A DNA stretch of 64,000 bases. Origin: a bacterium (GTDB lineage: Bacteria > Patescibacteriota > Microgenomatia > Daviesbacterales > UBA10151). The stretch spans positions 4,165 through 68,164 of the forward strand of contig JAJYIE010000001.1 in the NCBI GenBank assembly GCA_021790255.1. Reading direction: 5' to 3'. A program made the position numbers and the translations under genes. Of this stretch, positions 3,987 through 56,981 are shown one piece after another (position 1 is the stretch's first letter; the number at the start of each line of letters is the position of its first letter). Under the pieces are notes generated by a model. The model was not told the DNA's origin, searched no databases, and was given only the letters and a program-made list of their open reading frames with translations.

Positions 3987-4511
3987 CTATTTCACTTGCA
4001 GTTTGGGGTCAGCAGAAATTATAGAATCCCCTCCGGAAACTGAAGCTGTAAAAAAATAAACCGGAGCGCCACTTAATCCTCCAATCATTCCCCCGTTATC
4101 CTCAGCGACCCATTGCCCTATGGCTACTCCACCTTTAAAAACCGCCGGGTCTGGATTGATCTTAACTGCTCTGGTCCCGAAAATCCCCTGATCCTGCTGA
4201 ACATTAAACACCACTGTTTCACCGTCACAATCCCCGGCTCCTTTTACCTGCAGTGTCGCTGGCTCCCCCAGACCGATTGAATCGGTACCTCCCGGCACTA
4301 CCCAGCTTGCCCCGGTTAACTCACAGGCAGTAAATGAAACTGCCTGCGGACGCGGTGCAAAAACCTTCTCGCTGCTGGCAGAAGAGTTCAGGGTTTGTCT
4401 TTGCCCAAGTAGAGCAGTCGTAGCAAAAATTGACAACAAAACAACTCCCGTCAAAAGATAGATCAAAAGATTGCTGCCGGTTTTAAACTTTCGCTTTTTT
4501 TTAGACATCAC
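3987..4511 (-). CDS. Hypothetical membrane-anchored / secreted protein.
   Basis: 174 aa. Lys-rich N-terminus followed by one hydrophobic helix (LLIYLLTGVVLLSIFATTALL). No recognisable domain. Confidence 0.5.
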   Translation of the reverse strand: MMSKKKRKFKTGSNLLIYLLTGVVLLSIFATTALLGQRQTLNSSASSEKVFAPRPQAVSFTACELTGASWVVPGGTDSIGLGEPATLQVKGAGDCDGETVVFNVQQDQGIFGTRAVKINPDPAVFKGGVAIGQWVAEDNGGMIGGLSGAPVYFFTASVSGGDSIISADPKLQVK

Positions 4512-4585
4512 TAACTTTTCCCCTGTATTTAGTGGAGCATAAAAAGCAGTTCTTTGTCAATCTGAGAGAGTAGACAATATGTAGT

Positions 4586-6649
4586 TCATCTTTTATCACT
4601 ATTTACTGTCGTCTGTTCACTGTTCACTTTCTTGGGCTTCGTCCAGGACGCATACTTGCACTTGGGCCAATTTTTGCAGCCATAAAAGGGCCGGCCTTTT
4701 TTAGTCCGCCGCACGACAATTTCTCCGCCGCAATCAGGACAGCGCGCATTAACTTTTTCTTCAATGCTTTCCGTATATTTGCACTCCGGAAAACCGGTAC
4801 AAGCCAAAAACTTGCCGAATTTACCATATTTTACCTGCAAATTTTTGCCGCATTTGGGGCAAACTTTATCCGTTACCTCGCTTGCTATCTGCATCTTCTC
4901 CGCGTTTTCTGAAACCTCATTCAGCTTTTTCTCAAAAGGAGTGTAAAATTCCTCGATTGTCGGCTGCCACCTTCTTTCCCCGCGGGCAATCTCATCCAGC
5001 TCATCCTCCATCCGGGCCGTAAAATCATAATCAACAATATCCGGGAAATACTGAAGTAGAAAATCGGTAACTGCTATCCCCAAAGGGGTGGGGATAAACT
5101 TCTTTTCCATTTTTTCCACATAATAACGATCCTGGATTGTGGAAATGATCGGGGCGTATGTAGAGGGCCGCCCAATTCCCAGCTCTTCTAATTTTTTGAT
5201 CAGCGAAGCTTCGTTGTAGCGCGGAGGTGGCTCAGTAAAATGCTGAACCGGCATAAGCTGCAATAAACTCAGCCTATCGTCAGTATTAAGCACCGGCAAA
5301 TGCTGTCCTTTTTCATCTTTCTCTTCTTCATCAGCCCCTTTACCATAAGCTTTCAGCCAACCATCAAACTTAATTACGCTTCCGCTAGCACGAAGTAAAA
5401 ACTTACTTCCATTATTTTCCGCCTTTACATCAACTGTGGTTTGGTTCAAAACCGCCTCGCTCATCTGGCAGGCCAATGCCCGTTTCCAGATTAGTTCATA
5501 TAAACGCACATGGTCACGGGTCATCCCATCCATCATCTTCAACTGCTCACTCCCAAGACGAATATCAGTCGGCCTAACCGCCTCATGCGCCTCCTGAGCC
5601 ACCTTGGACTTGGTTTTATAAAAACGGGGGCTACCTGGCAGATAAGCCTTGCCCACCTGCTGCTCAATATAATTCCTGATTGCCCCAACTGCCTGAGTTG
5701 ATAAATTAACTGAATCCGTCCTCATATAAGTAATCAATCCCCGCTCATATAAAGTCTGGGCCACCATCATTGTTTTTTTGGCTGAAAAACCCAGGCGGGA
5801 AGAAGCAGTCTGCTGTATGGTTGAGGTGGTAAATGGCGGAGCAGGATATTTGCGGACTTCTCTAGTGTTTACCGATGACACCTTGTAAGTAGCAGCCTGC
5901 AGCTGCTTTGTGATCTCACCCGCCACCTCACCATTTGGGATTTCTACTTTTTTGCCGTCTTGTTCAATTAAAGTGGCAACGAAATTAGCATTTTTTCTCT
6001 CTGCCGCTTCCAGGTTCGCCTCAACACTCCAAAACTCGATAGGATTGAATGCCTGAACTTCCCGCTCCCGCTCAACAATTAACCGCAGTGCTACTGACTG
6101 CACCCGCCCGGCTGAGAGTCCCGATTTTACTTTTTTCCAAAGAAGAGGGGAAAGTTTATAACCTACAACCCGGTCGAGTACCCGCCGGCCCTGCTGGGCA
6201 TCAACCAACTGGAGATCAATGTCACGGGGGTGCTCAAAAGCCTCCTTAATTGCCCCCTCGGTAATTTCATGAAACTCCACCCGACGAATTGTGGGCAACT
6301 GGCTCTTAGCGCGCGGCTCGCGGGTCTTTTTCTTATCAGCCCCCAACCCCCCACCCGCTACTAGCTCCTGCAAATGCCAGGCAATCGCTTCCCCTTCCCG
6401 GTCAGGATCTGTGGCAAGCCATAAATTTTTGGCGGATGCGGCCGCTTTTTTTAACTCATTAACTTTTTTTAACTTATCCCGCGGGATAATATAGCGGGGA
6501 GTAAAGTGGTGCTCAATATCCACACCCAGCTCTGATTTGGGCAGATCGCGGATATGTCCCATTGAGGCCTCAACCTGATATTTGCCTCCCAAAAATTTTC
6601 CCAGTGTCCGGGCTTTGGTCGGTGATTCAACAATAACAAGATTTTGCAT
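4586..6649 (-). CDS. topA: DNA topoisomerase I.
   Basis: 687 aa. TOPRIM N-terminus MQNLVIVESPTKARTLGKFLG, active-site region ITYMRTDS, and C-terminal CxxC zinc ribbons (CPKCG...CPDCGG). Confidence 0.95.
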   Translation of the reverse strand: MQNLVIVESPTKARTLGKFLGGKYQVEASMGHIRDLPKSELGVDIEHHFTPRYIIPRDKLKKVNELKKAAASAKNLWLATDPDREGEAIAWHLQELVAGGGLGADKKKTREPRAKSQLPTIRRVEFHEITEGAIKEAFEHPRDIDLQLVDAQQGRRVLDRVVGYKLSPLLWKKVKSGLSAGRVQSVALRLIVEREREVQAFNPIEFWSVEANLEAAERKNANFVATLIEQDGKKVEIPNGEVAGEITKQLQAATYKVSSVNTREVRKYPAPPFTTSTIQQTASSRLGFSAKKTMMVAQTLYERGLITYMRTDSVNLSTQAVGAIRNYIEQQVGKAYLPGSPRFYKTKSKVAQEAHEAVRPTDIRLGSEQLKMMDGMTRDHVRLYELIWKRALACQMSEAVLNQTTVDVKAENNGSKFLLRASGSVIKFDGWLKAYGKGADEEEKDEKGQHLPVLNTDDRLSLLQLMPVQHFTEPPPRYNEASLIKKLEELGIGRPSTYAPIISTIQDRYYVEKMEKKFIPTPLGIAVTDFLLQYFPDIVDYDFTARMEDELDEIARGERRWQPTIEEFYTPFEKKLNEVSENAEKMQIASEVTDKVCPKCGKNLQVKYGKFGKFLACTGFPECKYTESIEEKVNARCPDCGGEIVVRRTKKGRPFYGCKNWPKCKYASWTKPKKVNSEQTTVNSDKR

Positions 6650-6754
6650 ATTCCTTTAAAAGTATGTGTAGTTTACCAGTATTGTCAAGACCTCCGCTGC
6701 AAACTTATGTAGGCTTGACAAAGCACAGCTTGTTAACATAAAGTAGCAGAAGGC

Positions 6755-7471
6755 ATGGGAATCGAGGCCCAAAACCCCTCCGCTGCTGGTCAACATCTTT
6801 CTTCCGTCCCAGAAGAGACTTTTGCTTTTCCTCCCGATTTAGACCCTTCGCTGTACGTTGTTGAGAGTCTGCCGGCAAATCCGACAGCTCCCGAGCCTGT
6901 TAACTTCTCAAGCTCGGAATTAAAGATTCTTTCAAAGCTTGAGTGGAACCTGGCGGATTTTATCTCATTGCCGCGCCAGGAAATTGCCACTCATGTTATG
7001 CCCGGAAGCCCACTACCCAAAACAGCCCGTCCCAAAAGAGTTGTCCGCATCTCGGCCATGGCCCTAGCACAAGAAGCAGCTGAAAGAACCCAAGCAAAAG
7101 CAAAAAGGGTTTGTCTTCTTGCTCCACCAGCTCCGGTTCTTCAACTTCCGCCACCTACACCACAAGATACTTATTATCCCGCTGATGAGAACCGGGCAAT
7201 TCCTGAAGAAGATCGTTTGTTTAATTTCTTGTCGCCTGAAAGTAAAACTTTTGACAGGTTAACCCGGATCATCCTGCAAGCCGATATCCTCAATATGCCC
7301 AGCCGGGAAACGTATCCGGCAGCAGTTTTTGTCTCCCGGCAAATGCCGCGCTATGAAGATGCAGCACTAAGCAAAGCATTGCGACTAGGTTACTGGAAAA
7401 ACTGGTTGGTTCTGGAAAATCTTTACCGCGGAAGTTCCCAAGGTATAAGCAACTACTTAATGTCTCTTTAA
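6755..7471 (+). CDS. Hypothetical Pro-rich protein.
   Basis: 238-aa ORF that fills the gap between the divergent topA and the next minus-strand gene. No domain recognised. Coding status uncertain. Confidence 0.35.
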   Translation: MGIEAQNPSAAGQHLSSVPEETFAFPPDLDPSLYVVESLPANPTAPEPVNFSSSELKILSKLEWNLADFISLPRQEIATHVMPGSPLPKTARPKRVVRISAMALAQEAAERTQAKAKRVCLLAPPAPVLQLPPPTPQDTYYPADENRAIPEEDRLFNFLSPESKTFDRLTRIILQADILNMPSRETYPAAVFVSRQMPRYEDAALSKALRLGYWKNWLVLENLYRGSSQGISNYLMSL

Positions 7472-7474
7472 TGA

Positions 7475-8290
7475 TTACTTTCCAGGGTTACCACATTCAC
7501 CTGGTTTGACTCCATCACTCTGCAAAGCGAAGTATTCACTGCCGTTGATTTTTAAATGTTCCGCAATAACTGTTTCATTGGTTTGATATCGATAACCATC
7601 GGGCGTTGGTCCCGTTGCCCCACACTGCGGGTACCTTTCATAGGTAGCATAAGTCGGACTAACATTAGCCACCTTGTAAAGAGTAGTAAAAGTTTTCGAT
7701 AATATCTTAGTCACCAAATCCGGCTCCCGAAACATGTCTTCGTTATACTTTCCTTCCCAAAGGGTCAACTGGTAAGTCGTACCTTCCTTCGGCACAAACA
7801 CCCGGTTAGCTCCGCGGATATTATTTATCGCTCCGTCAATCGTCGCGCCACTGTAGCGGTTAGTGTTGCTTTCAAAACTAAATAAATAGCGGTCGGCAGT
7901 GTTGTCATGGCCAACCTGATGAAACTCTGACCAAACGCCCGGATAGATTTTTCCATAGGTAGCAACGCCTCTAAAGGAAATTGCCAAATGCGGCATCAGG
8001 GTGTATCGGCCCATATACTCATGTGGGCCATGAATTCCGGAGAAAACCTCAACTTTGGTAGCAGGCTGCTCCGGACTATTCCCGGCTTCAACTTTATTGG
8101 CAATTGGCAAGGAAGCCGCCACCAGCGAGGCAGCAACAGCCGCGGCGCATGCTCCACAGGCCCACCTACCTCGGCCCTTTGCCCGGGGAACTCTCAAATT
8201 ATCCGTTTGATTCTTTTCCCCAGTGACAGTCAATTCAACTTTTCGATCCATGGCAGCGGCAACTATATCTAATTTGCCGTTAACTGTCAA
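7475..8290 (-). CDS. Hypothetical secreted protein.
   Basis: 271 aa. Signal-peptide-like stretch (WACGACAAAVAASLVAASLPIA). No recognisable domain. Confidence 0.5.
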   Translation of the reverse strand: MTVNGKLDIVAAAMDRKVELTVTGEKNQTDNLRVPRAKGRGRWACGACAAAVAASLVAASLPIANKVEAGNSPEQPATKVEVFSGIHGPHEYMGRYTLMPHLAISFRGVATYGKIYPGVWSEFHQVGHDNTADRYLFSFESNTNRYSGATIDGAINNIRGANRVFVPKEGTTYQLTLWEGKYNEDMFREPDLVTKILSKTFTTLYKVANVSPTYATYERYPQCGATGPTPDGYRYQTNETVIAEHLKINGSEYFALQSDGVKPGECGNPGK

Positions 8291-8317
8291 TATTCACAGG
8301 CCTTGGGTGCTGTTCCA

Positions 8318-10855
8318 TTAAGCCAAAATTTGTTCCCCGGCGATAAATTTTTCTCCCTTGGGAAGTTTTCCTGCTAAAATCAGCACCGAGAGTTTCGATT
8401 CCAGAGTATCCTGTATCAGCCGACGCATCGGTCTGGCCCCCAATACCGGGTCAAATCCCCGCCTGGTCAGGGCACTAACCAATGTTTTATCAAATTCAAT
8501 CAGGAAACCCTGATCTTTGAGTTGTTTTTGCAGCTGGGTTAGCTTAATTTGTACAATCTTTTCCAAATTTTCGGGAGAAAGCGGCTTAAACAACACCACC
8601 TCATCAAAACGGTTTATAAGCTCCGGTTTAAATATTTTCAGCAATTCCTCGCTAACCGGCTTTTTCAGCTGGTCGACACTCCAGCCCTGGCTAATTCCTT
8701 CAGCAATGGTCAGGCTGGCTGCATTGGAGGTGGCAATAATTATAGTGCTGGTAAAATCAACAGTGTGGCCTGAATAATCAGTCAGTCGCCCGTCGTCCAA
8801 AACCTGCAGGAAAACCGTCAATACTTTGGAGTCGGCTTTCTCAAATTCATCCAGCAGGATCAGCGTGTAGGGCTTATGGCGCACTTCCTCAGTCAACACC
8901 CCTTCATTGCCTTCCTCACCGATCAGTCTTTTTACAGAATCCGGAGTTTGAAACTCGGACATGTCCAGTCGTAAGAAATTGCCCTCCCCCTTAAAATATA
9001 TCTCGGAGAGAATTTTGGCCAGTTCAGTTTTACCGACACCAGTAGGCCCGACAAAAAGAAATGAACCGATCGGCCGGGTTTCTTCACGGAGGTGGGCTGC
9101 AGAGCGGCGTAGCGTATTGGCCACTGCCGAAACCGCCTCTTCCTGATCAACCAATTTTTGATGGATCAGATTTTCCAGATCCAAAAGCTGCAGTTTTTGC
9201 GCGGACTGGGCTTCTCCCACCGGAATATGGGTAATCTCTTGCACCAAACTTTCCGCCGCCGCCTTCTTTATCCAACCGTTCTCTGCCCGAGGAAGAAGCT
9301 GGGCAAAAAGCTGGAGAGCAGAATCCGGCAAACAGCGGTCATGGATATAATGCGCAGAAAGTTTCACCAGCTCTTTTTGCGCCAGCAGGGTAATATGGAT
9401 ATTGCCATGCCGCTCTTTTTCCAGAGCCCGGTTTTCCAGCACATCCAGAGTTTCCTCTGGGGATGCAGGCGGCAGGTCAACTTTTACAAAAAGACGGGTG
9501 AAACTGGCGTTTTTTTCTAAAATACGGGCAAAGCTGGCCGGATCGGTTGTGGCAATAAACTGGAAATTCGATGATTCAATGTACGGCAAAAGCAGCGAAT
9601 AGGTATTGAAGGCAGTTCCGGCCTCGCCCATTCCCAAATTTTGAATTTCATCGATACACAAAATGATATCCCCACAAAACTTCACGTCTTCAAAAATATT
9701 TTTAATCCTTTCCGCCAATTCACCCTGGGTCCTAATTCCCGTAATCAGCCCGGCAATATTCAGCCTAACCAGCTTTTTGGTGGCCAGGGCCGACGGTGCA
9801 TCACCGGCAATGATGGCTTGCGCCAGGGAATCTACCAGGGTAGTGCGGCCGGAACCTGCCTCACCGACAATAACCACATTGCGCCCCTTTTCCAAAGACA
9901 ATATATCCACTACCTGTTTGACATATTGCTGTCGGCCAATGAACTCACTTGCTTCTCCGTGGGCAGCCTTAAGGGTAATGTCCTCACTGTAATTATTCAG
10001 TTCGGGTGTAGGCACAGCTGTCCAGCCCCGGTTTACCCCGCGCAGGTGACGGGTGTGAAAATCATCATCCCAAACTGCCAATAAACGATGCGCGTTGACC
10101 TTCCGTTGCCAAAACATAGCCAGATCCCGAAAATCCTGGCTTGTTAATCCCATTTTTAACAATTTGCTGTCCAAATCCGGGATACCCAAGATATAAGCCA
10201 AAAAGAAGTGGCCGGCCGAAAGATAAGGAGCCTCTGTCTGCTTTCCGAGATCCCATGCCAGGCTAATCATCTGATCAAAGGAAGGGAGAGGAACCAGAGT
10301 AGCCAGACCGCCCGGGGTAAGTTCCAGATAAAATAGCATTTCTAAAACCTCCCGGTTTTTCAGCAGGCGGGCAAAATCTATCTCTTCTTTTTTGACCAAG
10401 CTACAGGCAAAAACCTCATCGGCATTTTTGATCTGTTTCACCTTTTTGTGGGGGGCGCTGACTACATGGTAGAAAAACAGTCCCAGGCCCAGCAGCACCA
10501 GCACTTTTGCCACTATTCCCGCTTCTTCGGGAACCATCACCGCTGCCACTGGCAGGAGCCACCATATTACTGCCAGAGTCAGCATTATGACAGAAACCGC
10601 AAACATCACCAGCAGGCCGAAAATTACCCGGAACATCCGGAAGCTGAAGCTCATAACCAGCCCGACGAAGGTCCGGTCATGAAAAAGCGGTTTAAACAGC
10701 AGGCGCAGCATCAGCCTTACTGCCAGGTCTTCTTCAAAAACAGCGAGGGTGTTGCGCCAGGAGCGCAGGAAGATAAAAAAACTTTCCTCAAACCAAAAAC
10801 GCAGCAAATGGACAGGCAAGTCAAGATAGTTCATGCGTTTAGTAATTAGTACCAA
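8318..10855 (-). CDS. ClpA/ClpC-like double-AAA+ ATPase with an N-terminal multi-helix membrane anchor.
   Basis: 845 aa. Residues ~60-140 form 3-4 hydrophobic helices, followed by a Clp_N-like repeat region. D1 has Walker A GEAGSGRTT and Walker B ILCIDEIQ. D2 has GPTGVGKTELAK, LILLDEFEKA and a GARPMRR sensor. The inter-domain linker is short with no long M-domain, and no obvious IGF/IGL ClpP-docking tripeptide is present. Confidence 0.85.
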   Translation of the reverse strand: MVLITKRMNYLDLPVHLLRFWFEESFFIFLRSWRNTLAVFEEDLAVRLMLRLLFKPLFHDRTFVGLVMSFSFRMFRVIFGLLVMFAVSVIMLTLAVIWWLLPVAAVMVPEEAGIVAKVLVLLGLGLFFYHVVSAPHKKVKQIKNADEVFACSLVKKEEIDFARLLKNREVLEMLFYLELTPGGLATLVPLPSFDQMISLAWDLGKQTEAPYLSAGHFFLAYILGIPDLDSKLLKMGLTSQDFRDLAMFWQRKVNAHRLLAVWDDDFHTRHLRGVNRGWTAVPTPELNNYSEDITLKAAHGEASEFIGRQQYVKQVVDILSLEKGRNVVIVGEAGSGRTTLVDSLAQAIIAGDAPSALATKKLVRLNIAGLITGIRTQGELAERIKNIFEDVKFCGDIILCIDEIQNLGMGEAGTAFNTYSLLLPYIESSNFQFIATTDPASFARILEKNASFTRLFVKVDLPPASPEETLDVLENRALEKERHGNIHITLLAQKELVKLSAHYIHDRCLPDSALQLFAQLLPRAENGWIKKAAAESLVQEITHIPVGEAQSAQKLQLLDLENLIHQKLVDQEEAVSAVANTLRRSAAHLREETRPIGSFLFVGPTGVGKTELAKILSEIYFKGEGNFLRLDMSEFQTPDSVKRLIGEEGNEGVLTEEVRHKPYTLILLDEFEKADSKVLTVFLQVLDDGRLTDYSGHTVDFTSTIIIATSNAASLTIAEGISQGWSVDQLKKPVSEELLKIFKPELINRFDEVVLFKPLSPENLEKIVQIKLTQLQKQLKDQGFLIEFDKTLVSALTRRGFDPVLGARPMRRLIQDTLESKLSVLILAGKLPKGEKFIAGEQILA

Positions 10856-10862
10856 CCTCTGA

Positions 10863-11222
10863 TTATTGGACTCTCACCAGATTCCCGTTGGTGTCAAGTT
10901 CAACAAAATGTTTAGCCCTCCCTTCCAGGTAAGCCGGGCACTGGTTTTGCGGTAGATCATCCATGGGTTCCCGGGGGCTGTGGACAATGTCCACCACCCA
11001 CCCCGGCATCAAATCATTGGTCAGACACGGCCCGTTGTCCATGCTCATACCCCCTGCTGCACGCTTTTTATATAGATCCACGGCAGCGGCTATTACTTCC
11101 CGCTCAGAAATTTTTCCCGTATCAATAGCAGGACGGGCTTCCAATTTTAAGACCGCTGCAGTCACTATTCCTACCCAAAACAGAGCCAGCCAAAAAATTA
11201 CTACCTTTCTTTTCTTAAACAT
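10863..11222 (-). CDS. Hypothetical small membrane-anchored protein.
   Basis: 119 aa with one N-terminal TM helix (VVIFWLALFWVGIVTAAVL). Confidence 0.45.
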   Translation of the reverse strand: MFKKRKVVIFWLALFWVGIVTAAVLKLEARPAIDTGKISEREVIAAAVDLYKKRAAGGMSMDNGPCLTNDLMPGWVVDIVHSPREPMDDLPQNQCPAYLEGRAKHFVELDTNGNLVRVQ

Positions 11223-11280
11223 AGTTTGCGACTATCTCTTAAGCAAAGCTTACGAGGATTTCATCCTCTTAATTACAATT

Positions 11281-11448
11281 TTAGCAGGTTTTGACATAAT
11301 TTCCTCCACCAAGGTTTTTAACCGCCCCGATAATCTCCATTTTAATGAGCGCGGCCGAAACGCCGGCTACGGGCACCTTCAGCTCCCGGCAAATTTCGTC
11401 AACATGCTTACCATCCCCGACTAAACATTCCAAAACCTCTTGTTCCAT
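11281..11448 (-). CDS. dprA: DprA C-terminal winged-helix (DML1-like) domain. It is encoded in frame downstream of the dprA TAG, so this is a split gene, a read-through candidate, or a sequencing artefact.
   Basis: Manual translation continues in the same frame after the TAG. It reads SKVKSNKLKVKSGNLSK, then MEQEVLECLVGDGKHVDEICRELKVPVAGVSAALIKMEIIGAVKNLGGGNYVKTC*. This matches the conserved DprA C-terminal pattern (EQxVLxxL...VDEI...LP...V..AL..LEL.G.V...G..Y). Confidence 0.6.
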   Translation of the reverse strand: MEQEVLECLVGDGKHVDEICRELKVPVAGVSAALIKMEIIGAVKNLGGGNYVKTC

Positions 11449-11499
11449 CTTTGACAGGTTCCCGCTTTTTACTTTTAATTTATTACTTTTTACTTTACT

Positions 11500-12372
11500 C
11501 TACCCAAGATCTTCAAATATCTCTCCCGCGTCCGTCACCAGCCTGGCTCCCTGCTTAATCAACATTGAAGGACCGAAGGATACTTCCGAGGTAATTGGCC
11601 CAGGCACAGCAAACACCTCTCTTCCTTGTTCAAGGGCATCTTTGGCAGTAATAAGCGATCCTGAATCCTCAGCAGCTTCAGTTACCAAAACTGCTTGGGA
11701 CAATCCGGAGATAATGCGGTTGCGGGCAGGAAAATTGCCGGGCAAAGATGGTTCATCGGGAGCAAACTCACTGATTAAAGCTCCTCCGCCATCAGCTATA
11801 CGATGAGCAAGGGCCAAATTTTCCGGCGGGAAAATTTTTTTTAAACCCCCACCCAAAACGGCCAGAGTTCGGCCTCCTGCTTCCAGAGCCACCCGGTGTG
11901 CCTCACTATCCACCCCACGGGCCAGACCTGAAACAACAGTTACCCCGGCCTCAGAAAGTCCGCGGGTCAGCTTCTCTGTAACCAGCTGCCCATAGCCAGT
12001 AATTTTGCGGGTACCTACAACGGCAACCGCCTTTTCATCTTCAGGCAAAGTCTGTCCGCGCACATATAAAACCACCGGCGGGTCATAAATCTCTTTTAAA
12101 AGTCGGGGGTAGTTTTCATCGAAAATGGTCAGCCAACCGATGCCAGCCTTTTCCACATCTTCCTGGTATTTTTGGGGGTCAAGTTTCCTGCGGGTTTCTA
12201 AAACGAGCGCTACCACATTTTTCGGTAGGCCGATTCGCGCCAGCTCGCGTCCGTCTGCTTCCCAGGCCAGCTTAGGATCCCCGAAATAATCCAGCACTGC
12301 CTTCAGCCTGATCGGCCCCAGACCCTTGATTGAGTGTAGCGCTAAAAGATACTCAGTATTACTAGTACTCAT
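11500..12372 (-). CDS. dprA: DNA processing protein DprA (Smf). The Rossmann/SAM portion ends at an in-frame TAG.
   Basis: 290 aa. Typical DprA core (GxGxD...VVSGLARGVDSEAHRVALEAGGRTLAVLGGGL). The stop is TAG at 11502..11500. Confidence 0.9.
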   Translation of the reverse strand: MSTSNTEYLLALHSIKGLGPIRLKAVLDYFGDPKLAWEADGRELARIGLPKNVVALVLETRRKLDPQKYQEDVEKAGIGWLTIFDENYPRLLKEIYDPPVVLYVRGQTLPEDEKAVAVVGTRKITGYGQLVTEKLTRGLSEAGVTVVSGLARGVDSEAHRVALEAGGRTLAVLGGGLKKIFPPENLALAHRIADGGGALISEFAPDEPSLPGNFPARNRIISGLSQAVLVTEAAEDSGSLITAKDALEQGREVFAVPGPITSEVSFGPSMLIKQGARLVTDAGEIFEDLG

Positions 12373-12428
12373 AAAATTCAGATTGTCTACCTCACCTTCA
12401 GAAATCTATCAACCATTATAATCTTCCC

Positions 12429-12454
12429 AAAACATTCTCGATCGAGAATGTTTT
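12429..12454. promoter_or_regulatory. Perfect 26-bp palindrome AAAACATTCTCGATCGAGAATGTTTT, a candidate operator at the -35 position of a dprA promoter.
   Basis: Lies 3 nt downstream of the regulator-gene stop and 57 nt upstream of the dprA ATG. On the minus strand it is followed by a 17-nt spacer and a perfect TATAAT (12420..12415). Confidence 0.5.
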
Positions 12455-12457
12455 GGA

Positions 12458-12934
12458 CTAAGCTTTGATTGTTTTTGACTCCATAACAGTAACCCATTCC
12501 CCAATTCCCACCTGATTTATATAATCTTTCAATACTACCCGACAATCTTTCTTGCTGGCCCAAACACTCTTTTGAATCATTGTGAAACCTAGAAGTTTCA
12601 GTTGATGGCGAAAAAGATCACGAGCCTTTCGTCTTTTTTCAGGAATATCCCAGATTACTAACCGCCATTTTCCATCCCATACCTCGTCATCCTGTCTCAT
12701 CTTAATTCGCAGAGCTTGGCTTTTCCCTTGGTCTGTTAACCTCAATGCCAGCTCTTGACCGGTTAAAAGCTCCACGAAACCTTTTTCTCTTAGCCTCTTT
12801 AAAGCTTTCGCTAGAGTAGATTTCTTGACTTCCCTCATCCCCTGAGCATATAAACTGGGGTTATAAGCAAAATCCTCAATTAGGATATATCCATCTACCG
12901 ACTTCTCGAGCGCTAACAGCATCAGCTTTGACAA
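12458..12934 (-). CDS. PaaX-like transcriptional regulator: N-terminal winged HTH plus C-terminal Cas2-like fold domain.
   Basis: 158 aa. wHTH segment STLAKALKRLREKGFVELLTGQ. C-terminal segment WDGKWRLVIWDIPEKRRKARDLFRHQLKLLGFTMIQKSVWAS, following the (Y/W)DI..RR....L...G.r.Q.SVW pattern of Cas2/PaaX_C. The ATG may be the internal M5 at 12922. Confidence 0.7.
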   Translation of the reverse strand: MSKLMLLALEKSVDGYILIEDFAYNPSLYAQGMREVKKSTLAKALKRLREKGFVELLTGQELALRLTDQGKSQALRIKMRQDDEVWDGKWRLVIWDIPEKRRKARDLFRHQLKLLGFTMIQKSVWASKKDCRVVLKDYINQVGIGEWVTVMESKTIKA

Positions 12935-12968
12935 ACTATCTTTTCGATCAAATCTTGCTACTTAAGTC

Positions 12969-12996
12969 CATTATATTCTCGATCGAGAATATAATG
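12969..12996. promoter_or_regulatory. Perfect 28-bp palindrome CATTATATTCTCGATCGAGAATATAATG, sitting between consensus -35 and -10 hexamers of the regulator's own promoter.
   Basis: Minus strand reads TTGACA (13000..12995), a 19-nt spacer made entirely of palindrome, then TATAAT. It shares the 16-bp core ATTCTCGATCGAGAAT with the 12429 copy. It also faces the divergent HD-domain gene. Confidence 0.55.
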
Positions 12997-13069
12997 TCAA
13001 TATTTGCGCGATATCTTCTTCTGTCTATTACCGATTTCTTTTTCAGGCAGCTTAATGTAAAATAGGCCA

Positions 13070-15604: not shown

Positions 15605-16114
15605 CTAATCTTTTAGTTTCAAGCGGAGTTCTTTTTGTGGTATAAACCGCTCTTCCCAAAAACGAACCAAAAAGTAGGCCGGTAAAATAAGTAGTGCTGA
15701 TAAAAACCACCACAAAAAGACAAATCCGGAAAAAATACCTGCTCCACTTAAAAAATTACGCAACAGGCTCTCTGCAAAGAGTGCCAGTAGTACTATGGGA
15801 AGAGATAGACTCCAGTGGGAGAAAAAATCAACCTTTTTTACCATGTTAACTAAAGCCAGCGCCACCAGATAAAACAAGCTCAAACTTCCCAACGGTAGAT
15901 TGGCCAGAAAGGAAACCAGCAAACCCAGACCAAATGCCAGGTAAATGTTTAAGTCATCATCGGTTATCAGAAAGCGCACCACCAAGACCAAACCCACCAG
16001 ATCAACAGGCAAAAATACCGCCTGAAAAAAAGCCAGCGCCAAAAGTACCGCTATTGATATTCTCATTGTTTCTACAAGAGGATACCCCGATCGAAAGATC
16101 ACGGGTAAACTCAT
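15605..16114 (-). CDS. mreD: Rod shape-determining protein MreD.
   Basis: 169-aa polytopic membrane protein positioned between mreC and PBP2. Confidence 0.6.
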   Translation of the reverse strand: MSLPVIFRSGYPLVETMRISIAVLLALAFFQAVFLPVDLVGLVLVVRFLITDDDLNIYLAFGLGLLVSFLANLPLGSLSLFYLVALALVNMVKKVDFFSHWSLSLPIVLLALFAESLLRNFLSGAGIFSGFVFLWWFLSALLILPAYFLVRFWEERFIPQKELRLKLKD

Positions 16115-27859: not shown

Positions 27860-28258
27860 TTATTTCCCGGAGCGGTAGTCGGCAATAGCCTTTTTTAAAG
27901 CCTCAGCAGACAAAACCGAGCAGTGGAATTTAATTGGAGGAAGTCCCCCAAGAGCTTCGGCAATAGCTTTTTCCGTCACTTTTTCCGCCTCGTCCAACCT
28001 TTTGCCTTTAACCAAAGTGGTGATCATGCTGGATGTAGCAATAGCTGCCCCACAGCCCAAAGTCTGAAACTTAATATCCTTAATATACTCCTGCCCGCCA
28101 TTTTTAATAATCTTCAAATACAGTTTCATCACATCCCCGCAATGCGGATTGCCCACCAAAGACTGCGCATTTGCATCAGCAATCTTCCCCATATTTTTTG
28201 GGTTTTTCATATGCTTTAAAACTTTCGGCGAATAAATCTTCTGAAAAATATCTTCCAT
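27860..28258 (-). CDS. nifU: Fe-S cluster scaffold protein NifU/IscU (N-terminal-domain type).
   Basis: 132 aa. GNPHCGD, GCGAAIATS and KFHCSVL Cys motifs. Confidence 0.9.
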   Translation of the reverse strand: MEDIFQKIYSPKVLKHMKNPKNMGKIADANAQSLVGNPHCGDVMKLYLKIIKNGGQEYIKDIKFQTLGCGAAIATSSMITTLVKGKRLDEAEKVTEKAIAEALGGLPPIKFHCSVLSAEALKKAIADYRSGK

Positions 28259-28261
28259 AGG

Positions 28262-29488
28262 CTAAATTGTTGCAAAAGCTCCTCTTAGCTCGGAAAGGTC
28301 AGGTGCCATCTCCCGCAACTTCTCCGTTGCCTCACGCAAAACTTTCAGCGTATAGCCGATCTCTTCTTCCGTAGTATCCTTACCCAAAGATACGCGCAGA
28401 GAACCGTGCGCGAGCTCTGCCGGAATGCCCACGGCAGAGAGGACATGGGAGGGAGTAAGGCTCTGGCTGGTACAAGCAGATCCTGTGGAAACAATCACCT
28501 TTTTATCAGATAAAAGCAGCTGCAAAGCTTCCCCTTCCACTCCTTCCACTATAAATGAAGCCAGGTGCGGTGCCCTGATTTTGGGGTGTCCTGTTAAACT
28601 GACCCCAGGAATTTCCAGCACTCCCTTGATCAGCTTATCTCTGAGCCTTTCCATCTCCTTTTGCCTTTTGATTTTTGATTTTTGACTTAACTCCACCGCT
28701 TTCCCCAACGCCACAATATACGGCACATTTTCCGTGCCAGAGCGCAATTTCCTCTCCTGGTCCCCTCCATCCAGTTGCCGAATCAGTGGAGTTCCCGTCT
28801 TGACAAAAAGTGCTCCCACCCCTTTTGGCGCATAAATTTTGTGCCCTGTAAACGAAAGCAGATCCACACCCAGCTTATCTGCACCACAGTCCAGATATTG
28901 GACAGCCTGCGTCGCGTCGGTATGAAAATAAATGTGTGGTTTGTTATGAGTTCGCTCGTGGTTGATAGCTTTCAACAACCGGCCGATCTGTGAAACCGGC
29001 TGAATTGTCCCCACCTCATTGTTTACATACATCACCGACACCAGCACCGTTTCCGGGCGTACTTCCTTTCGGACATCATATATGGAAACCATACCGTATT
29101 TATCTACCTGCAGGTAAGTAACCTTCGCCCGGCCCAAAGTTTCCAGGTGAGCACAAGTCTCGAGAACAGCCTTATGCTCCACAGTACTCGTAATAATATG
29201 CGGCCGCCTGCCGTTTTGAAACTGCGGCAGTAAAGCCTCAATCAGGCCTTTATGGGATAAATTTATTGATTCTGTTGCCGAACCGGTGAAAATTACCTCG
29301 GCATTTTTGCAACCCAACATCCCAGCCACTTGTTCCCGGGATTTTTCCACAGCTTCTTTCGCCTGCCGGCCTAACGAGTGTACTTCGGAAGGATTGCCGT
29401 ATTTTTGAGTAAAATAAGGCCGCATCGTCCGGAAAACCTGGGGATCAACCCTGGTGGTAGCAGCATTATCAAGATAAACCAGCTTCAT
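28262..29488 (-). CDS. nifS: Cysteine desulfurase (NifS/IscS).
   Basis: MKLVYLDNAATT N-terminus, PLP-lysine region GHKIYAPKG and catalytic-Cys loop SSGSACTS. The ORF track starts at a GTG at 29533. The ATG at 29488 avoids overlap with the upstream regulator. Confidence 0.9.
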   Translation of the reverse strand: MKLVYLDNAATTRVDPQVFRTMRPYFTQKYGNPSEVHSLGRQAKEAVEKSREQVAGMLGCKNAEVIFTGSATESINLSHKGLIEALLPQFQNGRRPHIITSTVEHKAVLETCAHLETLGRAKVTYLQVDKYGMVSIYDVRKEVRPETVLVSVMYVNNEVGTIQPVSQIGRLLKAINHERTHNKPHIYFHTDATQAVQYLDCGADKLGVDLLSFTGHKIYAPKGVGALFVKTGTPLIRQLDGGDQERKLRSGTENVPYIVALGKAVELSQKSKIKRQKEMERLRDKLIKGVLEIPGVSLTGHPKIRAPHLASFIVEGVEGEALQLLLSDKKVIVSTGSACTSQSLTPSHVLSAVGIPAELAHGSLRVSLGKDTTEEEIGYTLKVLREATEKLREMAPDLSELRGAFATI

Positions 29489-29501
29489 AATAAAGTTAAA
29501 T

Positions 29502-29765
29502 CTATGAAAACAGCTTACAAATATTTTCATCACATTTCGGGTGTAATTTATAAAAAACTTTCCGTCCTTCTTTGCGGGAAGTGACTATCCCCGAATCTTC
29601 CAGGTATTTTAAGTGGTGGGTGATGGTTGGTTGGGCGATCTGGAAATGTTTGGCAATTTCCATCACCGACATCTCGGGCTTTTCCTGGAGCAAACCGATA
29701 ATTTCAATCCGGGAACTGCAGGACAGCCCTGCAAAACATCCCGCACAACCAGAGTCCATTTTCAT
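29502..29765 (-). CDS. ArsR/SmtB-family transcriptional regulator with a Cys-rich N-terminus.
   Basis: HTH MSVMEIAKHFQIAQPTITHHLKYLEDSGIV. N-terminal DSGCAGCFAGLSC. The likely ATG is at 29765; the track's 29774 is a TTG. Confidence 0.8.
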   Translation of the reverse strand: MKMDSGCAGCFAGLSCSSRIEIIGLLQEKPEMSVMEIAKHFQIAQPTITHHLKYLEDSGIVTSRKEGRKVFYKLHPKCDENICKLFS

Positions 29766-29896: not shown

Positions 29897-30646
29897 ATGC
29901 CCACTTTTTTTTCATCAATTGTGCTTGAAAATAAGAAACTCAACGATAAGTTCCACCATCTTCGCCTCCGTGCAGAAAACCCGGACTTTCAGTTTAAGAC
30001 CGGCCAATTTACTGTTCTCAAGATTGACAGTCTCACGTACCGCAGTTATTCCATTTCTTCAACTCCGCAAAAACTCCCTCTTTGGGAGATGTTTGTGGAT
30101 GTCACACCGCAGGGCCCCGGCACACGTTACCTGGAAAGCCTAAAACCCGGCCAGGCTATTGAAACCAGCAGACCTGCCGGCAATTTCATCATCACCCAAA
30201 AGGCTCCCAGGAATATTATTTTTGGTGCCACTGGATGTGGGATTGCCTCAATTAAACCCCTTATTGAACAACTCCTTACTCAACCCGCTTCGCCAGCCAA
30301 GCAGAACGAGCAGCCGGCAATCCACATCCAACTCTTCTGGGGCCTGCGGCATATCAAAGACATTGTCTGGCAGGAAAATTTCAAGCAGTGGGCTAAAGAC
30401 CATCCTAGTTTTCATTATCAGATATATCTTTCCCGCCCTGAGGGGCCGTGGGACGGTAAGACAGGCCATATAAATACCGGTCTGCTGACACTCACCAAAA
30501 CGCTGCTTCCACTTCAAACCGCAGTTTATCTTTGCGGCAGCCTGGAAATGATCACGGATATCACTGAGCAATTGTCGGTTGCGGGTTTCCCGGATAAGCA
30601 AATCTTTTTTGAGCATTACTTTGCTGGGAATAAAAACCGGACATAG
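29897..30646 (+). CDS. FAD/NAD(P)-binding oxidoreductase (ferredoxin-NADP reductase-like).
   Basis: 249 aa. RSYSISS (RxYS FAD motif), GATGCGIASI (NAD(P) motif) and a C-terminal YLCGSLEM. Confidence 0.75.
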   Translation: MPTFFSSIVLENKKLNDKFHHLRLRAENPDFQFKTGQFTVLKIDSLTYRSYSISSTPQKLPLWEMFVDVTPQGPGTRYLESLKPGQAIETSRPAGNFIITQKAPRNIIFGATGCGIASIKPLIEQLLTQPASPAKQNEQPAIHIQLFWGLRHIKDIVWQENFKQWAKDHPSFHYQIYLSRPEGPWDGKTGHINTGLLTLTKTLLPLQTAVYLCGSLEMITDITEQLSVAGFPDKQIFFEHYFAGNKNRT

Positions 30647-31733
30647 GCCAGTTTTCCCCAAAACCTTTAACCAGTGTTATCTTAATATTATTCGCCAACC
30701 TGCCCGATCTTCTCTTAGCTAAGCTGGTAGAGGTCCCCCTGACCAAACCTAAAGCATAGGACAAATGAGCAACTAAAAATAACAGCGGCAGGAAAAGCGC
30801 CAGGTAAAGCTTTCTCCTCCTTTTGGAAAAACCCGCAGCAGAAGCAAATGCGGCAGCAAAATAGACAAATATCGGCATTAAAACCAAGGCTGCATGGTAA
30901 AAAAACAGTAAAACAAAATACAAAAGCAAGCCCAGTGGTAACAGAAATAGTTTGCCTGTTCTAAACCCAGTTACCCGCAGGTTTTCCATCCGCCCCCGGC
31001 CGTAGTTGAAAAACATCTCCATGATTGTACTTAAAGATTCACGCCTTGGCCGGTTAACATAGATCCCCGGGTGATAAATCAAGCCATAGCCCTTTCTGCT
31101 CAGCCGGCTTAAAAACTCGTTTTCTTCATTCGGATAAAGTTCTTCACGAAACCCTCCCGACTCACTAAAGACTTTCCTTCGGACAGCCAGATTACATAAG
31201 ATCAGCTCCCTCTCGTCGGTAAAACGAAAACGGCCGGTGGGCCGAAACCTGCTGCTCATAACATAGTATGCAAAAAAAGATTCAAGGATAATCCCGCCTA
31301 TCGATGCCCAGAATGATTCCCGGCGGTTCCAGATACTCGGGCCTCCGACTACGGCAATCTTTTCTCGGGGCCGGCGGCTGGAAAAAAACACTTTCTCCAC
31401 CTGCTCACAAATCAAAGGAGGAAGTACGGAGAAAGTCCTCATCGGAGCCGGCCCACCCAAATCTTGACCCCCAAAGGCTGCTACAACACGGGTCAAAGAT
31501 TCCCGGGAAAGTTCAGAATCGTTATCCAAAAAATACAGAATCTGCCCGCGGGCAGATTTTGCCGCCTCGTTCCTTTGCCGAGAAGGGGATGAACCCTGAC
31601 AAATGATCACTTCTAAAAGCCGGGGGTCAAAATCCAGTCTGGTCAGAGATTTTAAAGAAGCTCCGGGAAACTCGGTAGGCCGGGCTGCAATAATAATACT
31701 GAATTTAGGCTGCTTGCTTTCCATATTCGCCAT
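30561..31733 (-). CDS. GT2-family glycosyltransferase with a C-terminal TM domain.
   Basis: FSIIIAARP N-terminus, YFLDNDSE DxD-like motif and 3-4 C-terminal TM helices. The start is chosen downstream of the upstream gene's stop; the track's 31799 start would overlap it by ~95 nt. Confidence 0.7.
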   Translation of the reverse strand: MANMESKQPKFSIIIAARPTEFPGASLKSLTRLDFDPRLLEVIICQGSSPSRQRNEAAKSARGQILYFLDNDSELSRESLTRVVAAFGGQDLGGPAPMRTFSVLPPLICEQVEKVFFSSRRPREKIAVVGGPSIWNRRESFWASIGGIILESFFAYYVMSSRFRPTGRFRFTDERELILCNLAVRRKVFSESGGFREELYPNEENEFLSRLSRKGYGLIYHPGIYVNRPRRESLSTIMEMFFNYGRGRMENLRVTGFRTGKLFLLPLGLLLYFVLLFFYHAALVLMPIFVYFAAAFASAAGFSKRRRKLYLALFLPLLFLVAHLSYALGLVRGTSTSLAKRRSGRLANNIKITLVKGFGENWPMSGFYSQQSNAQKRFAYPGNPQPTIAQ

Positions 31734-32559
31734 GGTGCTTTCCCCAACCTGATCGGTATTTTTCTGCTTCAAAGTAGCATGAAACTCCATTCCTTCCAAC
31801 CCTTGAATCCACTTTCAGGACAAGTAAATCGGCCAGCCAGGCGTTAACCCACTCCGGTCTAAGGATTACCCATCTTTTAAATAACTTTTTTAAGAAATAT
31901 TGTAAGGCCGATACCGGCATCAGCAAATCCATCGTCACTACTACTTTTGGGTCAACGAACTCCGAAGCCTCTCTGACCCGGAAGTTGTTCTGCTCCAGAA
32001 GTTTTATCCAATACTTCTTAGGATAAAGCTCCTGCTGCCAAAGGCGGTTTTTCCAGTTAATATAGGCACTGCCCGCTTTGGAAAATCCCATCGCACGCAG
32101 GCTGTTTCCCAAAACATAGTGCTGTTTGGTCCGTTCGTTAGGTACGGTAAACATTAACTTGCCGCCCCTTTTTAATACCCTGTTGATCTCAGAAAAAACC
32201 CGGTCATGGTCCGGGAGATGCTCAAAGACGCTATTGGAAATCACGGTAGAAAAACTGTCTCCGGCGAAAGGCATCCGACCGGCTTCGCCTACAACAACTT
32301 TTTTATAAGCACCTCGCCGGCGGGCCAACTTTATTTCGGCGCTGTTGAAGTCTAAACCGGTATCAATTCCCTTCTTTCCAAAGCACGCGGCAGCAAAAAC
32401 ACCGTCACCACAACCGATGTCCAGTATTGGTGGTTCCAATTTTTTACCGGCAAAGGCTATTGCTTCACAACTCCTGGCCAGGGCGTGAGCTACCGGTAAA
32501 TCTTTCAGAAAAACTTTCAGAATTTCTTTTTCGTCCGCTGTCTTACGTGCCATAATCAA
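31705..32559 (-). CDS. Class I SAM-dependent methyltransferase.
   Basis: 284 aa. Motif I ILDIGCGDG, and motif II/III regions present. Confidence 0.8.
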   Translation of the reverse strand: MIMARKTADEKEILKVFLKDLPVAHALARSCEAIAFAGKKLEPPILDIGCGDGVFAAACFGKKGIDTGLDFNSAEIKLARRRGAYKKVVVGEAGRMPFAGDSFSTVISNSVFEHLPDHDRVFSEINRVLKRGGKLMFTVPNERTKQHYVLGNSLRAMGFSKAGSAYINWKNRLWQQELYPKKYWIKLLEQNNFRVREASEFVDPKVVVTMDLLMPVSALQYFLKKLFKRWVILRPEWVNAWLADLLVLKVDSRVGRNGVSCYFEAEKYRSGWGKHHGEYGKQAA

Positions 32560-32649
32560 AAAAATTTTTTAGCAAGAGCTTTAAGATGATAAAGTTGCTA
32601 CAACCTTCGGTTATAAATTGTTATAATTCCAACAGCCAATAAATACAAG

Positions 32650-33693
32650 GTGGCAAATATGTCCCACAAGCTCACTTATCTGGTTATATCTTTGACACAC
32701 CGGTGCAATTCCCGCTGTCAGGCTTGTCTTGAGTGGCAAATGCCGGCCCCCGATAAAAACAGAGAACTTTCGGCCGGACAATACCGGCAAGTATTTCAAA
32801 GCTGGAAAGACACTATTCCCTACTTATCATTTGTCGGCGGGGAGGCTTTCCTGCGGGAAGACCTGGCAGAAATTGTGATTACCGCTGCAAAAAATTTACA
32901 CCCGAAGAATATCAACCTGGCCACAAACGGGCTTCTGCCTGAAAAAATTGTGAGCGACACTAAAACTATCTTGTCAAAGATCCCTTTCTCCACCATCCTC
33001 ACAATTAATTTATCTATTGACGGAGTTCGGCATGTCCACGATTTCAGCCGGGGAGAAAAGGGGTTTTTTGCTAAACTATTTTCGACTTATCATGGTCTGA
33101 AGCCGCTCCAAAAAGATTTCCCAAATTTACGCATCGCCTTCCACAGTGGTTTATCTGTTTATAATAACACCCGCCTTCCGGCACTATTTCGCCTCCTGGA
33201 AAGCCTTAAACCGGATAGCTATATACTGGAACCTGCTGCCGACAGAGATGAACTGCTGGAAAAGATGCGCAAGGTGCAAATAGATGCAACCAGCTGGCAA
33301 AATATAATACAAAAACACAAAAAAGCCCTTTGGGACTTAAACGGCAAGGTAAGCCTGCCTTATCATTTGGCTCGTTTCGGCTATTATCCCTTTTCCGCGG
33401 AAGTTTTAAAAAAGTTCGACCAGGTTATCCCCTGTCAGGCCGGCAGGAAAGCTCTTTTTATTGACCAGGCAGGAAATGTCAAAGCCTGCGAAAACCGTCC
33501 TACAATTGCAGGTCTCCCTCAGTTTAAATACAACCTAAAGAAAATTTTCCACTCCAATACCACTAAGGCTGAGCAGCAAAAGATTGCCGTCCGAGAGTGT
33601 TTTTGCCACAGCAGTTACCACTATTATATCAGTATCGAAAGCAGGCCCTGGTATTTGGTAAAATTACTGCTGAAAATGCTCATGGACAGATGA
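32650..33693 (+). CDS. Radical SAM protein with a C-terminal Cys-rich (SPASM/twitch-like) region.
   Basis: 347 aa. CNSRCQAC (CX3CX2C) at residues ~19-26. C-terminal Cys residues (CQAGRK...NVKAC...CFCHSS). Confidence 0.8.
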   Translation: MANMSHKLTYLVISLTHRCNSRCQACLEWQMPAPDKNRELSAGQYRQVFQSWKDTIPYLSFVGGEAFLREDLAEIVITAAKNLHPKNINLATNGLLPEKIVSDTKTILSKIPFSTILTINLSIDGVRHVHDFSRGEKGFFAKLFSTYHGLKPLQKDFPNLRIAFHSGLSVYNNTRLPALFRLLESLKPDSYILEPAADRDELLEKMRKVQIDATSWQNIIQKHKKALWDLNGKVSLPYHLARFGYYPFSAEVLKKFDQVIPCQAGRKALFIDQAGNVKACENRPTIAGLPQFKYNLKKIFHSNTTKAEQQKIAVRECFCHSSYHYYISIESRPWYLVKLLLKMLMDR

Positions 33694-35093
33694 CTGATGT
33701 TTTGCTAATCAACCCTTACGCCAAATCCACTACCTGGGCCTCCGGTTACCGGGTTATGCCCTTGGGGCTTTCCTATATAGCCTCTTTTTTGGAGCAATCA
33801 GGTGTTATTGTTAAAGCGCTTGATTTAAACATTAACCATCTCTCCTCCCAGGAGCTGAAAAAAATCATCTTGCGGGATAAGCCACGCCTGGTCGGGATAA
33901 CTGCGACCACCCCTATGGTTAAAAGCAGCTGGCAGCTTGCCGAACTGATCAAGGAAACAATTGACACAAAAATTGTTCTGGGGGGGCCGCATCCCTCTGC
34001 CTTACCGGAAGAGTCGGCTTCGTTGCCCCAAATTGACTTTGTTGTCAACCACGAAGGTGAAGAAACTATGGCAGAGCTTACAAAAGCAATTTTTAACCAC
34101 CAGCCAACCACACAAATCCCAGGGATAAGCTACAAAAAAGGGCAGCAAGTGATAAACAACCTGCCCCGCCCTTATATTAAAAACCTGGACAGCCTGCCTT
34201 TTCCGGCCCGCCACCTTTTCCCTGTCAAAAAATACCGTCCCTCCCAACCACTTTTATCGATGCGCTACCCCGCTGCGCACATTTTGACCTCCCGTGGATG
34301 TCCATATGGCTGCAACTTTTGTTATAAGGGTGTTTTCGGCAGAACTTACCGGACCCGTTCCGTAGAAAGTGTGTTAAATGAGTGGGAAATATTGGTTAAA
34401 AAATATAAGGTCAAAGAGATTGAGATTGTTGACGATAATTTTGCCCTTGATGTCTCGCGGGCAATTAAGATCTGCGAGGGAATTATCCGCCGGAAGTTGG
34501 TCGTTCCCTGGGCAACCTACTCCGGAATCAGGGTTGATCATCCTCATTCCGGGGAACTAATTAAGCTGATGAAAAAAGCCGGCTGCTACCGGATCGCTTT
34601 TGGGGTAGAATCCGGGTCGGACAAAGTTTTATCCCGCATTGAGAAAAAAATCAGCACCCGCCAAGTGCAAAAAGCTGTTGCTACTGCGAAAGAGGCAGGA
34701 TTTTTAACTATGGCATATTGTATGGTCGGCAATATTGGCGAAGACAGACAAACCATGCAGCAGACAGTTGATTTTGCCAAAAACTTAGGCTGCGACTTTG
34801 CCCAGTTTACCGTCAGTACCCCCTTCCCCGGTACCGCACTTTATAGGCAAGTGCTCGAAGAAGGCAGGCTTCTGATAACCGATTGGGACCGGTTTGATAA
34901 CATGGGCGGCAAAGCTTTTTTTGAAATCGGCAGTGTCAGGAAAGATGATGTAGAACAGATGCGGAGCAAGGCTTATTGGCAGTTTTACACTCAGCCGCGG
35001 GTTTTGTTAACTCTGGGGCGAAAAATGGTTGAAAATCCCAGGATGATACAATTTTTCCTGCCAAAACTGCTGTCTGCTATCAAAAGGTCATGA
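33690..35093 (+). CDS. B12-binding (class B) radical SAM protein.
   Basis: N-terminal cobalamin-binding Rossmann-like domain. Radical-SAM motif SRGCPYGCNFC. ATGA overlap with the upstream gene. Confidence 0.85.
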   Translation: MTDVLLINPYAKSTTWASGYRVMPLGLSYIASFLEQSGVIVKALDLNINHLSSQELKKIILRDKPRLVGITATTPMVKSSWQLAELIKETIDTKIVLGGPHPSALPEESASLPQIDFVVNHEGEETMAELTKAIFNHQPTTQIPGISYKKGQQVINNLPRPYIKNLDSLPFPARHLFPVKKYRPSQPLLSMRYPAAHILTSRGCPYGCNFCYKGVFGRTYRTRSVESVLNEWEILVKKYKVKEIEIVDDNFALDVSRAIKICEGIIRRKLVVPWATYSGIRVDHPHSGELIKLMKKAGCYRIAFGVESGSDKVLSRIEKKISTRQVQKAVATAKEAGFLTMAYCMVGNIGEDRQTMQQTVDFAKNLGCDFAQFTVSTPFPGTALYRQVLEEGRLLITDWDRFDNMGGKAFFEIGSVRKDDVEQMRSKAYWQFYTQPRVLLTLGRKMVENPRMIQFFLPKLLSAIKRS

Positions 35094-38189: not shown

Positions 38190-38191
38190 CT

Positions 38192-41128: not shown

Positions 41129-41145
41129 GCTATTGTAATTGTAAC

Positions 41146-44255: not shown

Positions 44256-44258
44256 AGG

Positions 44259-44840: not shown

Positions 44841-45072
44841 TGCAGGGATGATCCGGCTACACTGGAGATAACTCTAAATCTGGCCAGAAGACGAGATGGC
44901 AGGCGGCTTACCGTCATAAATATTACCACAATCAAAGTTTACCCGGGTATTCCGACCTGCTGGCAGTCTTTCACTCCTGTTTCCACCTGGTCCCCACGCG
45001 AACTTGTGCGCAGTCTGACAAAATCTCACCTAGCCATGCCCGGCCACGCTACGCTTTGCATACGCCAAGCCT

Positions 45073-47672: not shown

Positions 47673-47703
47673 CCTTAACTATTTAATATGATAATCATTT
47701 CAA

Positions 47704-49464: not shown

Positions 49465-49523
49465 TGTTTTAAGTTAGTACGGATGTGCCTTTTTTGTCAA
49501 ACACATCGTGAGTCTCGGAAAAG

Positions 49524-51761: not shown

Positions 51762-51780
51762 CCCACAGAAGGTGTCAGGG

Positions 51781-56974: not shown

Positions 56975-56981
56975 ATAAGTT

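Follow-up and report, generated by a model that had tools for sequence, protein, structure and literature searches.

Probable recent nonsense substitution separating the winged-helix domain from the DprA core in a Candidatus Daviesbacteria lineage

In the stretch of DNA analysed here (64,000 nucleotides in all, hereafter the window), the dprA gene of an uncultured Candidatus Daviesbacteria lineage is interrupted by an in-frame TAG, past which the frame continues into the C-terminal winged-helix (WH) domain of DprA. This is probably the outcome of a recent and genuine nonsense substitution at codon 291 of a standard three-domain dprA, an event of an ordinary kind in a known gene family, which involves no new coding mechanism. 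On the minus strand (12372..11500), the gene opens with an ATG at 12372 and encodes a 290-aa DprA core that ends at the TAG stop (11502..11500), and past this stop the frame runs on for a further 72 codons, to a TAA at 11283..11281. The first 17 of these codons, six of which encode Lys, are followed by an ATG at 11448 that opens a 55-aa ORF terminated by the same TAA. All of these coordinates had been given in an initial annotation of the window, and every one of them was borne out by the sequence and its ORFs. The locus comprises the following parts:

11500..12372, minus strand: dprA core ORF, 290 aa, TAG included; putative N-terminal SAM-like region and Rossmann-fold DprA domain (PF02481)
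11500..11502, minus strand: premature in-frame TAG, seen in the sequence, replacing the Ile, Leu, Met or Trp codon of all orthologues
11449..11499, minus strand: Lys-rich inter-domain linker of 17 codons, SKVKSNKLKVKSGNLSK, which aligns with the linker of fused relatives
11281..11448, minus strand: 55-aa ORF, ATG to TAA, encoding the DprA WH domain (PF17782, E-value 7.7e-9)

Both pieces scored above the Pfam cut-offs (gathering scores of 29.6 bits for PF02481 and 22.9 bits for PF17782). The 290-aa piece matched PF02481 (DNA_processg_A) with 262.2 bits (E-value 3.2e-78), with residues 73-280 aligned to profile positions 2-211 of 212, and the 55-aa piece matched PF17782 (DprA_WH) with 35.9 bits, substantiating the earlier proposal that this segment corresponds to the DprA C-terminal winged helix. 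When the TAG was bridged, the PF17782 match began at residue 305, inside the linker and four residues ahead of the ATG at 11448. Residues 1-72, the putative SAM-like region, are conserved among 23 relatives, and the alignment with PDB 3MAJ starts at residue 15. Compared with three-domain DprA/Smf proteins (SAM, Rossmann fold and a C-terminal winged helix, also described as DML1 or Z-alpha-like), represented by the Daviesbacteria orthologues P0002-P0120, the read-through product has the same domains in the same order, the SAM domain putatively, and the same overall length, being encoded by 363 codons versus 353-382; its identity to Daviesbacteria DprA is 62-71% over 97-100% of its sequence. Furthermore, it aligns across the stop with the three-domain DprA of Rhodopseudomonas palustris (PDB 3MAJ), over residues 15-356. 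The difference from the three-domain proteins is that codon 291 is a TAG here, leaving two separate ORFs, and such a stop is present in no relative examined; the single uninterrupted ORF that encodes the core and the WH domain in all orthologues is thus not found in this dprA.

A 72-codon open frame past a stop is, on its own, not rare in the window. Across all six frames, 17 same-frame pairs, including dprA, were found with at least 100 open codons upstream of a stop and at least 50 downstream. The dprA pair is nevertheless non-random, because the downstream part matches the WH domain and the read-through product is colinear across the stop with every orthologue and with 3MAJ. Five pairs involve a gene, namely, dprA itself, three pairs of adjacent genes (nifS/nifU, def/fmt, and a 193-aa ORF followed by a PMT-like gene), and one open frame that follows the ORF at 3987..4511 and extends into the start of pyrG. 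A further interrupted gene, which would hint at TAG read-through or at poor assembly, was looked for in the window and rejected, the other gene pairs being separate genes or the pyrG overlap. The nifS/nifU pair (27860..29533, minus strand), in which the two genes share a frame and are set apart by TAG plus one codon, mimics an interrupted gene in a stop-to-stop scan and consists of two normal genes.

To place the gene among its relatives, we searched the read-through product against 5.8 billion protein clusters, with 119 relatives among the matches listed. Each of these 119 nearest homologues is one protein of 353-382 aa that carries both PF02481 and PF17782, shows 62-71% identity and covers 96-100% of the query, and the only short entry among the matches listed was the source genome's own 290-aa protein. 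The named relatives belong to Candidatus Daviesbacteria, Patescibacteria or Microgenomates. The initial annotation had suggested the closest relatives as a check on whether dprA is normally fused or split, and had considered that the orthologues might all lack the C-terminal domain; the listed relatives are uniformly fused and retain it. In 23 aligned relatives, the column beneath the TAG reads ILMLIILIMWIIILIIMMILLIM, that is, Ile, Leu, Met or Trp, all hydrophobic, and the codons found at this position in 8 related loci are ATG, TTA, CTG, ATC and CTC, with no stop codon there in any of the 23 aligned relatives or the 8 loci. The linker is nearly identical to that of one relative, P0076 (GKVKSSKLKVKSVEELSK), and both the linker and the invariant WH residues are in register with the 23 relatives. 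A Daviesbacteria MAG locus, L001, has the same gene order as the window (PBP2, one other gene, dprA, a 120-aa ORF and a ClpB-like AAA+ gene), and its dprA is a fused gene of 366 aa. Given that all relatives found are fused, the TAG is derived and specific to the Daviesbacteria lineage studied. The collections searched contained no relative closer than 71% identity, which was the best value among the matches listed from the protein clusters; the best relative reached 64% identity among the GTDB species representatives and 63% in the JGI metagenomes. These relatives, sought in order to date the nonsense mutation, are too distant for that purpose.

The neighbourhood of the gene in the window is that of an ordinary chromosome, with mreB, mreC, PBP2, an HD hydrolase, a PaaX-like gene, dprA, a ClpB-like gene, topA and pyrG. 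The ClpB-like double-AAA+ protein (8318..10855, minus strand) carries a hydrophobic N-terminal region of ~300 aa, without a Pfam match, in the place of Clp_N; its equivalent in L001 lies after dprA, at 4495..7026, and is preceded by an unannotated ORF of ~120 aa. Directly upstream of dprA, the window encodes a small PaaX_M (Cas2-like) protein (12458..12934, minus strand). A small PaaX_M protein is also encoded directly upstream of dprA on a Patescibacteria-like scaffold, L024 (299..547), and this position is occupied by a DUF5615/PIN-like gene in L001.

The WH segment past the stop shows no detectable decay. It is 61% identical to the relatives, which are 65% identical to each other; the ratio of WH to core identity is 0.85, versus 0.88 +/- 0.09 in the relatives, and there are no frameshifts. 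The WH residues that are invariant among the relatives are all retained, including H323, D325, E326, E346, I347, N353, G355, G357 and Y359. This preservation fits a very recent mutation and continued selection on a separate or read-through product equally well. On the view of a recent nonsense substitution, the intact look of the downstream sequence would be explained by a mutation that is young on the scale of the divergence between this dprA and that of any sequenced relative. The likeliest change would be Leu TTG to TAG, by one transversion, as suggested by the Leu codons present at this site in relatives, and the TAG sits precisely where the Rossmann-fold core gives way to the WH linker. 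Translation would then stop at the TAG, yielding a 290-aa DprA with the SAM and Rossmann domains, which, by homology and from the literature, should still bind incoming ssDNA and load RecA. The WH domain would be detached and made, if at all, in small amounts, through leaky read-through or re-initiation at the ATG 51 nt downstream.

The 290-aa and 55-aa proteins are both recorded in NCBI, ENA and Logan; an exact look-up of the 290-aa protein gave no match, and look-ups of the 55-aa ORF and of a neighbouring gene matched. In the Logan assembly of SRR13170411, the locus lies on a 10.7-kb contig, from which 6136 bases were retrieved that are 100% identical to positions 6863..12998 of the window, TAG included. 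A second assembly with the same TAG makes a simple assembly error less likely. It is unlikely that the TAG is an artefact or an unfixed variant, in which case a sense codon would stand here in the true (or majority) dprA, and the stop would represent a consensus or base-call error or the allele of a sub-population. Such an explanation draws on the fact that the window comes from a MAG seen in a single sample, with three contig records (NCBI, ENA and one from Logan) that are probably built from the same reads, and the agreement of two different assemblers over the 6136 bases speaks against it, although both assemblies may rest on these reads. It would also accommodate a WH domain that follows the TAG without any decay, and other 'standalone WH' proteins in public data turned out to be assembly artefacts where checked (L024 and L023). 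However, the TAG is a substitution and not an indel, and it lies in non-repetitive sequence, outside any homopolymer and with no adjoining scaffold gap. Moreover, the 64-kb window is otherwise made up of intact genes, one of them an ORF of 2274 aa, and holds no second interrupted gene.

We consider it similarly improbable that the two ORFs make up a functional two-piece DprA, in which the 55-aa WH domain is translated from the ATG at 11448, by re-initiation or independent initiation, is kept by selection and acts in trans, for example, by binding ComM. The retention of every invariant WH residue is compatible with this arrangement, as is the position of the ATG, which in the AlphaFold model of the 55 aa (mean pLDDT 82) stands immediately ahead of helix 1; the ORF holds three helices (2-9, 16-23 and 27-46), and the C-terminal wing is poorly modelled. 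Met, however, occupies the column of this ATG in 3 of the 23 fused relatives as well, so that the ATG need not be an adaptation. A Foldseek search with the 55-aa model gave generic wHTH and Z-alpha matches, none significant, and there was no DprA C-terminal domain chain among the 50 matches listed.

The 55-aa ORF was predicted by the gene callers used for the NCBI, ENA and Logan records, and the region upstream of its ATG is A-rich and not significantly structured. Shine-Dalgarno pairing upstream of this ATG amounts to -4.7 kcal/mol, no worse than in two thirds of the genes in the window. The median anti-Shine-Dalgarno pairing is -2.9 kcal/mol at 36 gene starts (e.g., 12372, 11222 and 15603) versus -3.0 kcal/mol at all 1570 ATGs of the window, and because gene starts pair no more strongly than random ATGs, this test cannot discriminate whether the 55-aa ORF is translated. 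With the genes of the window generally devoid of strong Shine-Dalgarno sites, a weak site would be no obstacle to translation of the small ORF. More broadly, translation initiation in this Daviesbacterium may be largely independent of Shine-Dalgarno sequences. On the other side, no promoter-like or terminator-like signal above the shuffled expectation was detected between the core ORF and the 55-aa ORF. Furthermore, under the ComM-recruitment model, a free WH domain would be unable to bring ComM to DprA-coated DNA, as can be deduced from the work on the DprA-ComM interaction (bioRxiv 10.1101/2024.10.21.619469).

The comparative data also weigh against a two-piece DprA, the gene being split in none of the 119 relatives listed and mini-WH proteins elsewhere being artefacts where checked. 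An exhaustive HMMER search with the 55-aa piece against 1.84 billion representatives recovered 52 representatives, many of them short, and the short hits mostly begin inside DprA sequence, like fragments at contig edges. Two candidates for a standalone WH gene were rejected: in L024 (598..1627), a scaffold run of N inside dprA shifts the frame, and in L023 (317..472), the contig is only 543 bp long. Both of the clean-looking mini-ORFs inspected were thus artefacts, and no conserved two-gene DprA was found in this search. In metagenomic protein catalogues, as this case illustrates, entries of the 'mini DprA_WH protein' type are for the most part fragments or artefacts.

In the window, TAG acts as an ordinary stop and ends 12 of the 43 long ORFs. 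The nifS gene, which covers the PF00266 profile up to position 368 of 371, ends in TAG, with the ATG of nifU one codon later, and the terminal TAG of the gene in the mreD position (15605..16114) abuts the start of the next gene. Genome-wide reassignment of TAG, which the initial annotation had already deemed unlikely on the strength of the PaaX-like gene (12458..12934) and a B12-binding radical SAM gene (41146..42600), both ending in TAG, can be rejected on these counts. Low-level near-cognate read-through of UAG does occur in bacteria, and in dprA the frame is perfectly kept across the stop, with the linker and the domain intact. Production of full-length DprA by read-through or suppression of the TAG (near-cognate decoding, a suppressor tRNA(CUA) or pyrrolysine), with the stop lowering or regulating the dose of the WH-bearing form, is nonetheless very unlikely: the stop is conserved in no relative, its TAG-A context is common to two other genes in the window, the 64-kb window contains neither a tRNA gene nor an Rfam element, and the RNA around the stop is no better structured than shuffled sequences (z = -1.1). 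With the stop not conserved, no tRNA in the window and no significant RNA structure, nothing marks the position as a programmed read-through site. The initial annotation had set out three readings without ranking them, namely, a nonsense mutation or pseudogenisation, a genuinely split gene, and programmed read-through or a base-call error. This framing held up, and the data narrow it to a recent nonsense mutation as the best reading and lend no evidence to programmed read-through.

If a nonsense substitution indeed truncated the gene, the product would resemble the DprA of bacteria that naturally lack the WH domain. The architecture consisting of SAM and Rossmann domains is the natural form of DprA in Firmicutes. 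Among the PDB DprA chains, 3UQZ (E-value 2.7e-46) and 3MAJ (E-value 9.2e-40) were matched; in 3UQZ, the two-domain DprA of Streptococcus pneumoniae (SAM and Rossmann fold, without WH), residues 59-278 of 288 align to query residues 64-287, and the C-terminal end of the 290-aa product coincides with that of the pneumococcal protein. Unlike in the two-domain proteins, the WH-less form here would come about via truncation of a three-domain gene that still carries its WH codons, in frame, past the stop. In Gram-positive bacteria, the DprA WH domain is absent, and so is ComM (bioRxiv 10.1101/2024.10.21.619469). In Riemerella, where the native DprA carries the WH domain, the WH-less S. pneumoniae DprA (SAM+RF) restores transformation to a dprA mutant (PMC6533540).

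In Gram-negative bacteria, as studied in Vibrio cholerae and Helicobacter pylori, the C-terminal WH domain of DprA binds the branch-migration helicase ComM and brings it to the site of recombination, and mutants in the DprA-ComM interaction phenocopy a comM deletion while the presynaptic function of DprA is kept (bioRxiv 10.1101/2024.10.21.619469). The segment past the stop belongs to the same Pfam family, PF17782, that defined the ComM-binding domain in that work (10.1101/2024.10.21.619469); the interaction with ComM is known from V. cholerae and H. pylori and may, by analogy, extend to Patescibacteria. The competence genes of Patescibacteria, among them dprA, are conserved throughout the group, and Saccharibacteria have been demonstrated to undergo natural transformation (PMC10633639). 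The 64-kb window contains no comM gene. By analogy with these systems, we infer that the truncated protein would be a partly functional DprA without a tether to ComM. If the mutation is real and fixed, the population would probably still protect incoming DNA and load RecA, and the loss of DprA-mediated ComM recruitment would predict reduced integration of longer or heterologous DNA, so that the lineage would offer, on a small scale, a natural experiment into what the DprA winged helix does in Patescibacteria. It is quite improbable that the split is being maintained, either as a WH-less DprA alongside a free 55-aa ComM-binding WH peptide or through a small, regulated fraction of read-through; were this true, a Patescibacterium would tune ComM-dependent branch migration, or uncouple it from RecA loading, in the course of natural transformation. 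The importance of the finding beyond annotation is little. For annotation, the locus is to be described as a dprA with an internal stop (a truncated core and an orphaned WH ORF), which is neither two independent genes nor a recoding event.

Elsewhere in the window, positions 30561..63806 hold a large gene cluster that resembles those for envelope glycosylation or modification. It contains four radical SAM genes:

33597..35093: B12-binding radical SAM gene
36723..38189: B12-binding radical SAM gene
41146..42600: B12-binding radical SAM gene
32650..33693: plain radical SAM gene

The cluster further encodes three class-I methyltransferases, glycosyltransferases of the GT1, GT2 and GT4 types, two YfhO-like proteins, and PMT_2- and TMEM260-like membrane proteins, along with a protein of 2274 aa that combines a GT2 N-terminus with an MG2 domain. 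The GC skew of the plus strand is negative from position 1 to ~56 kb and positive from ~56-58 kb onwards, where the cumulative skew reaches its minimum. This change of sign near 56000..58000 may be the trace of a replication origin or terminus, or may stem from the composition of the giant gene located at 56982..63806.
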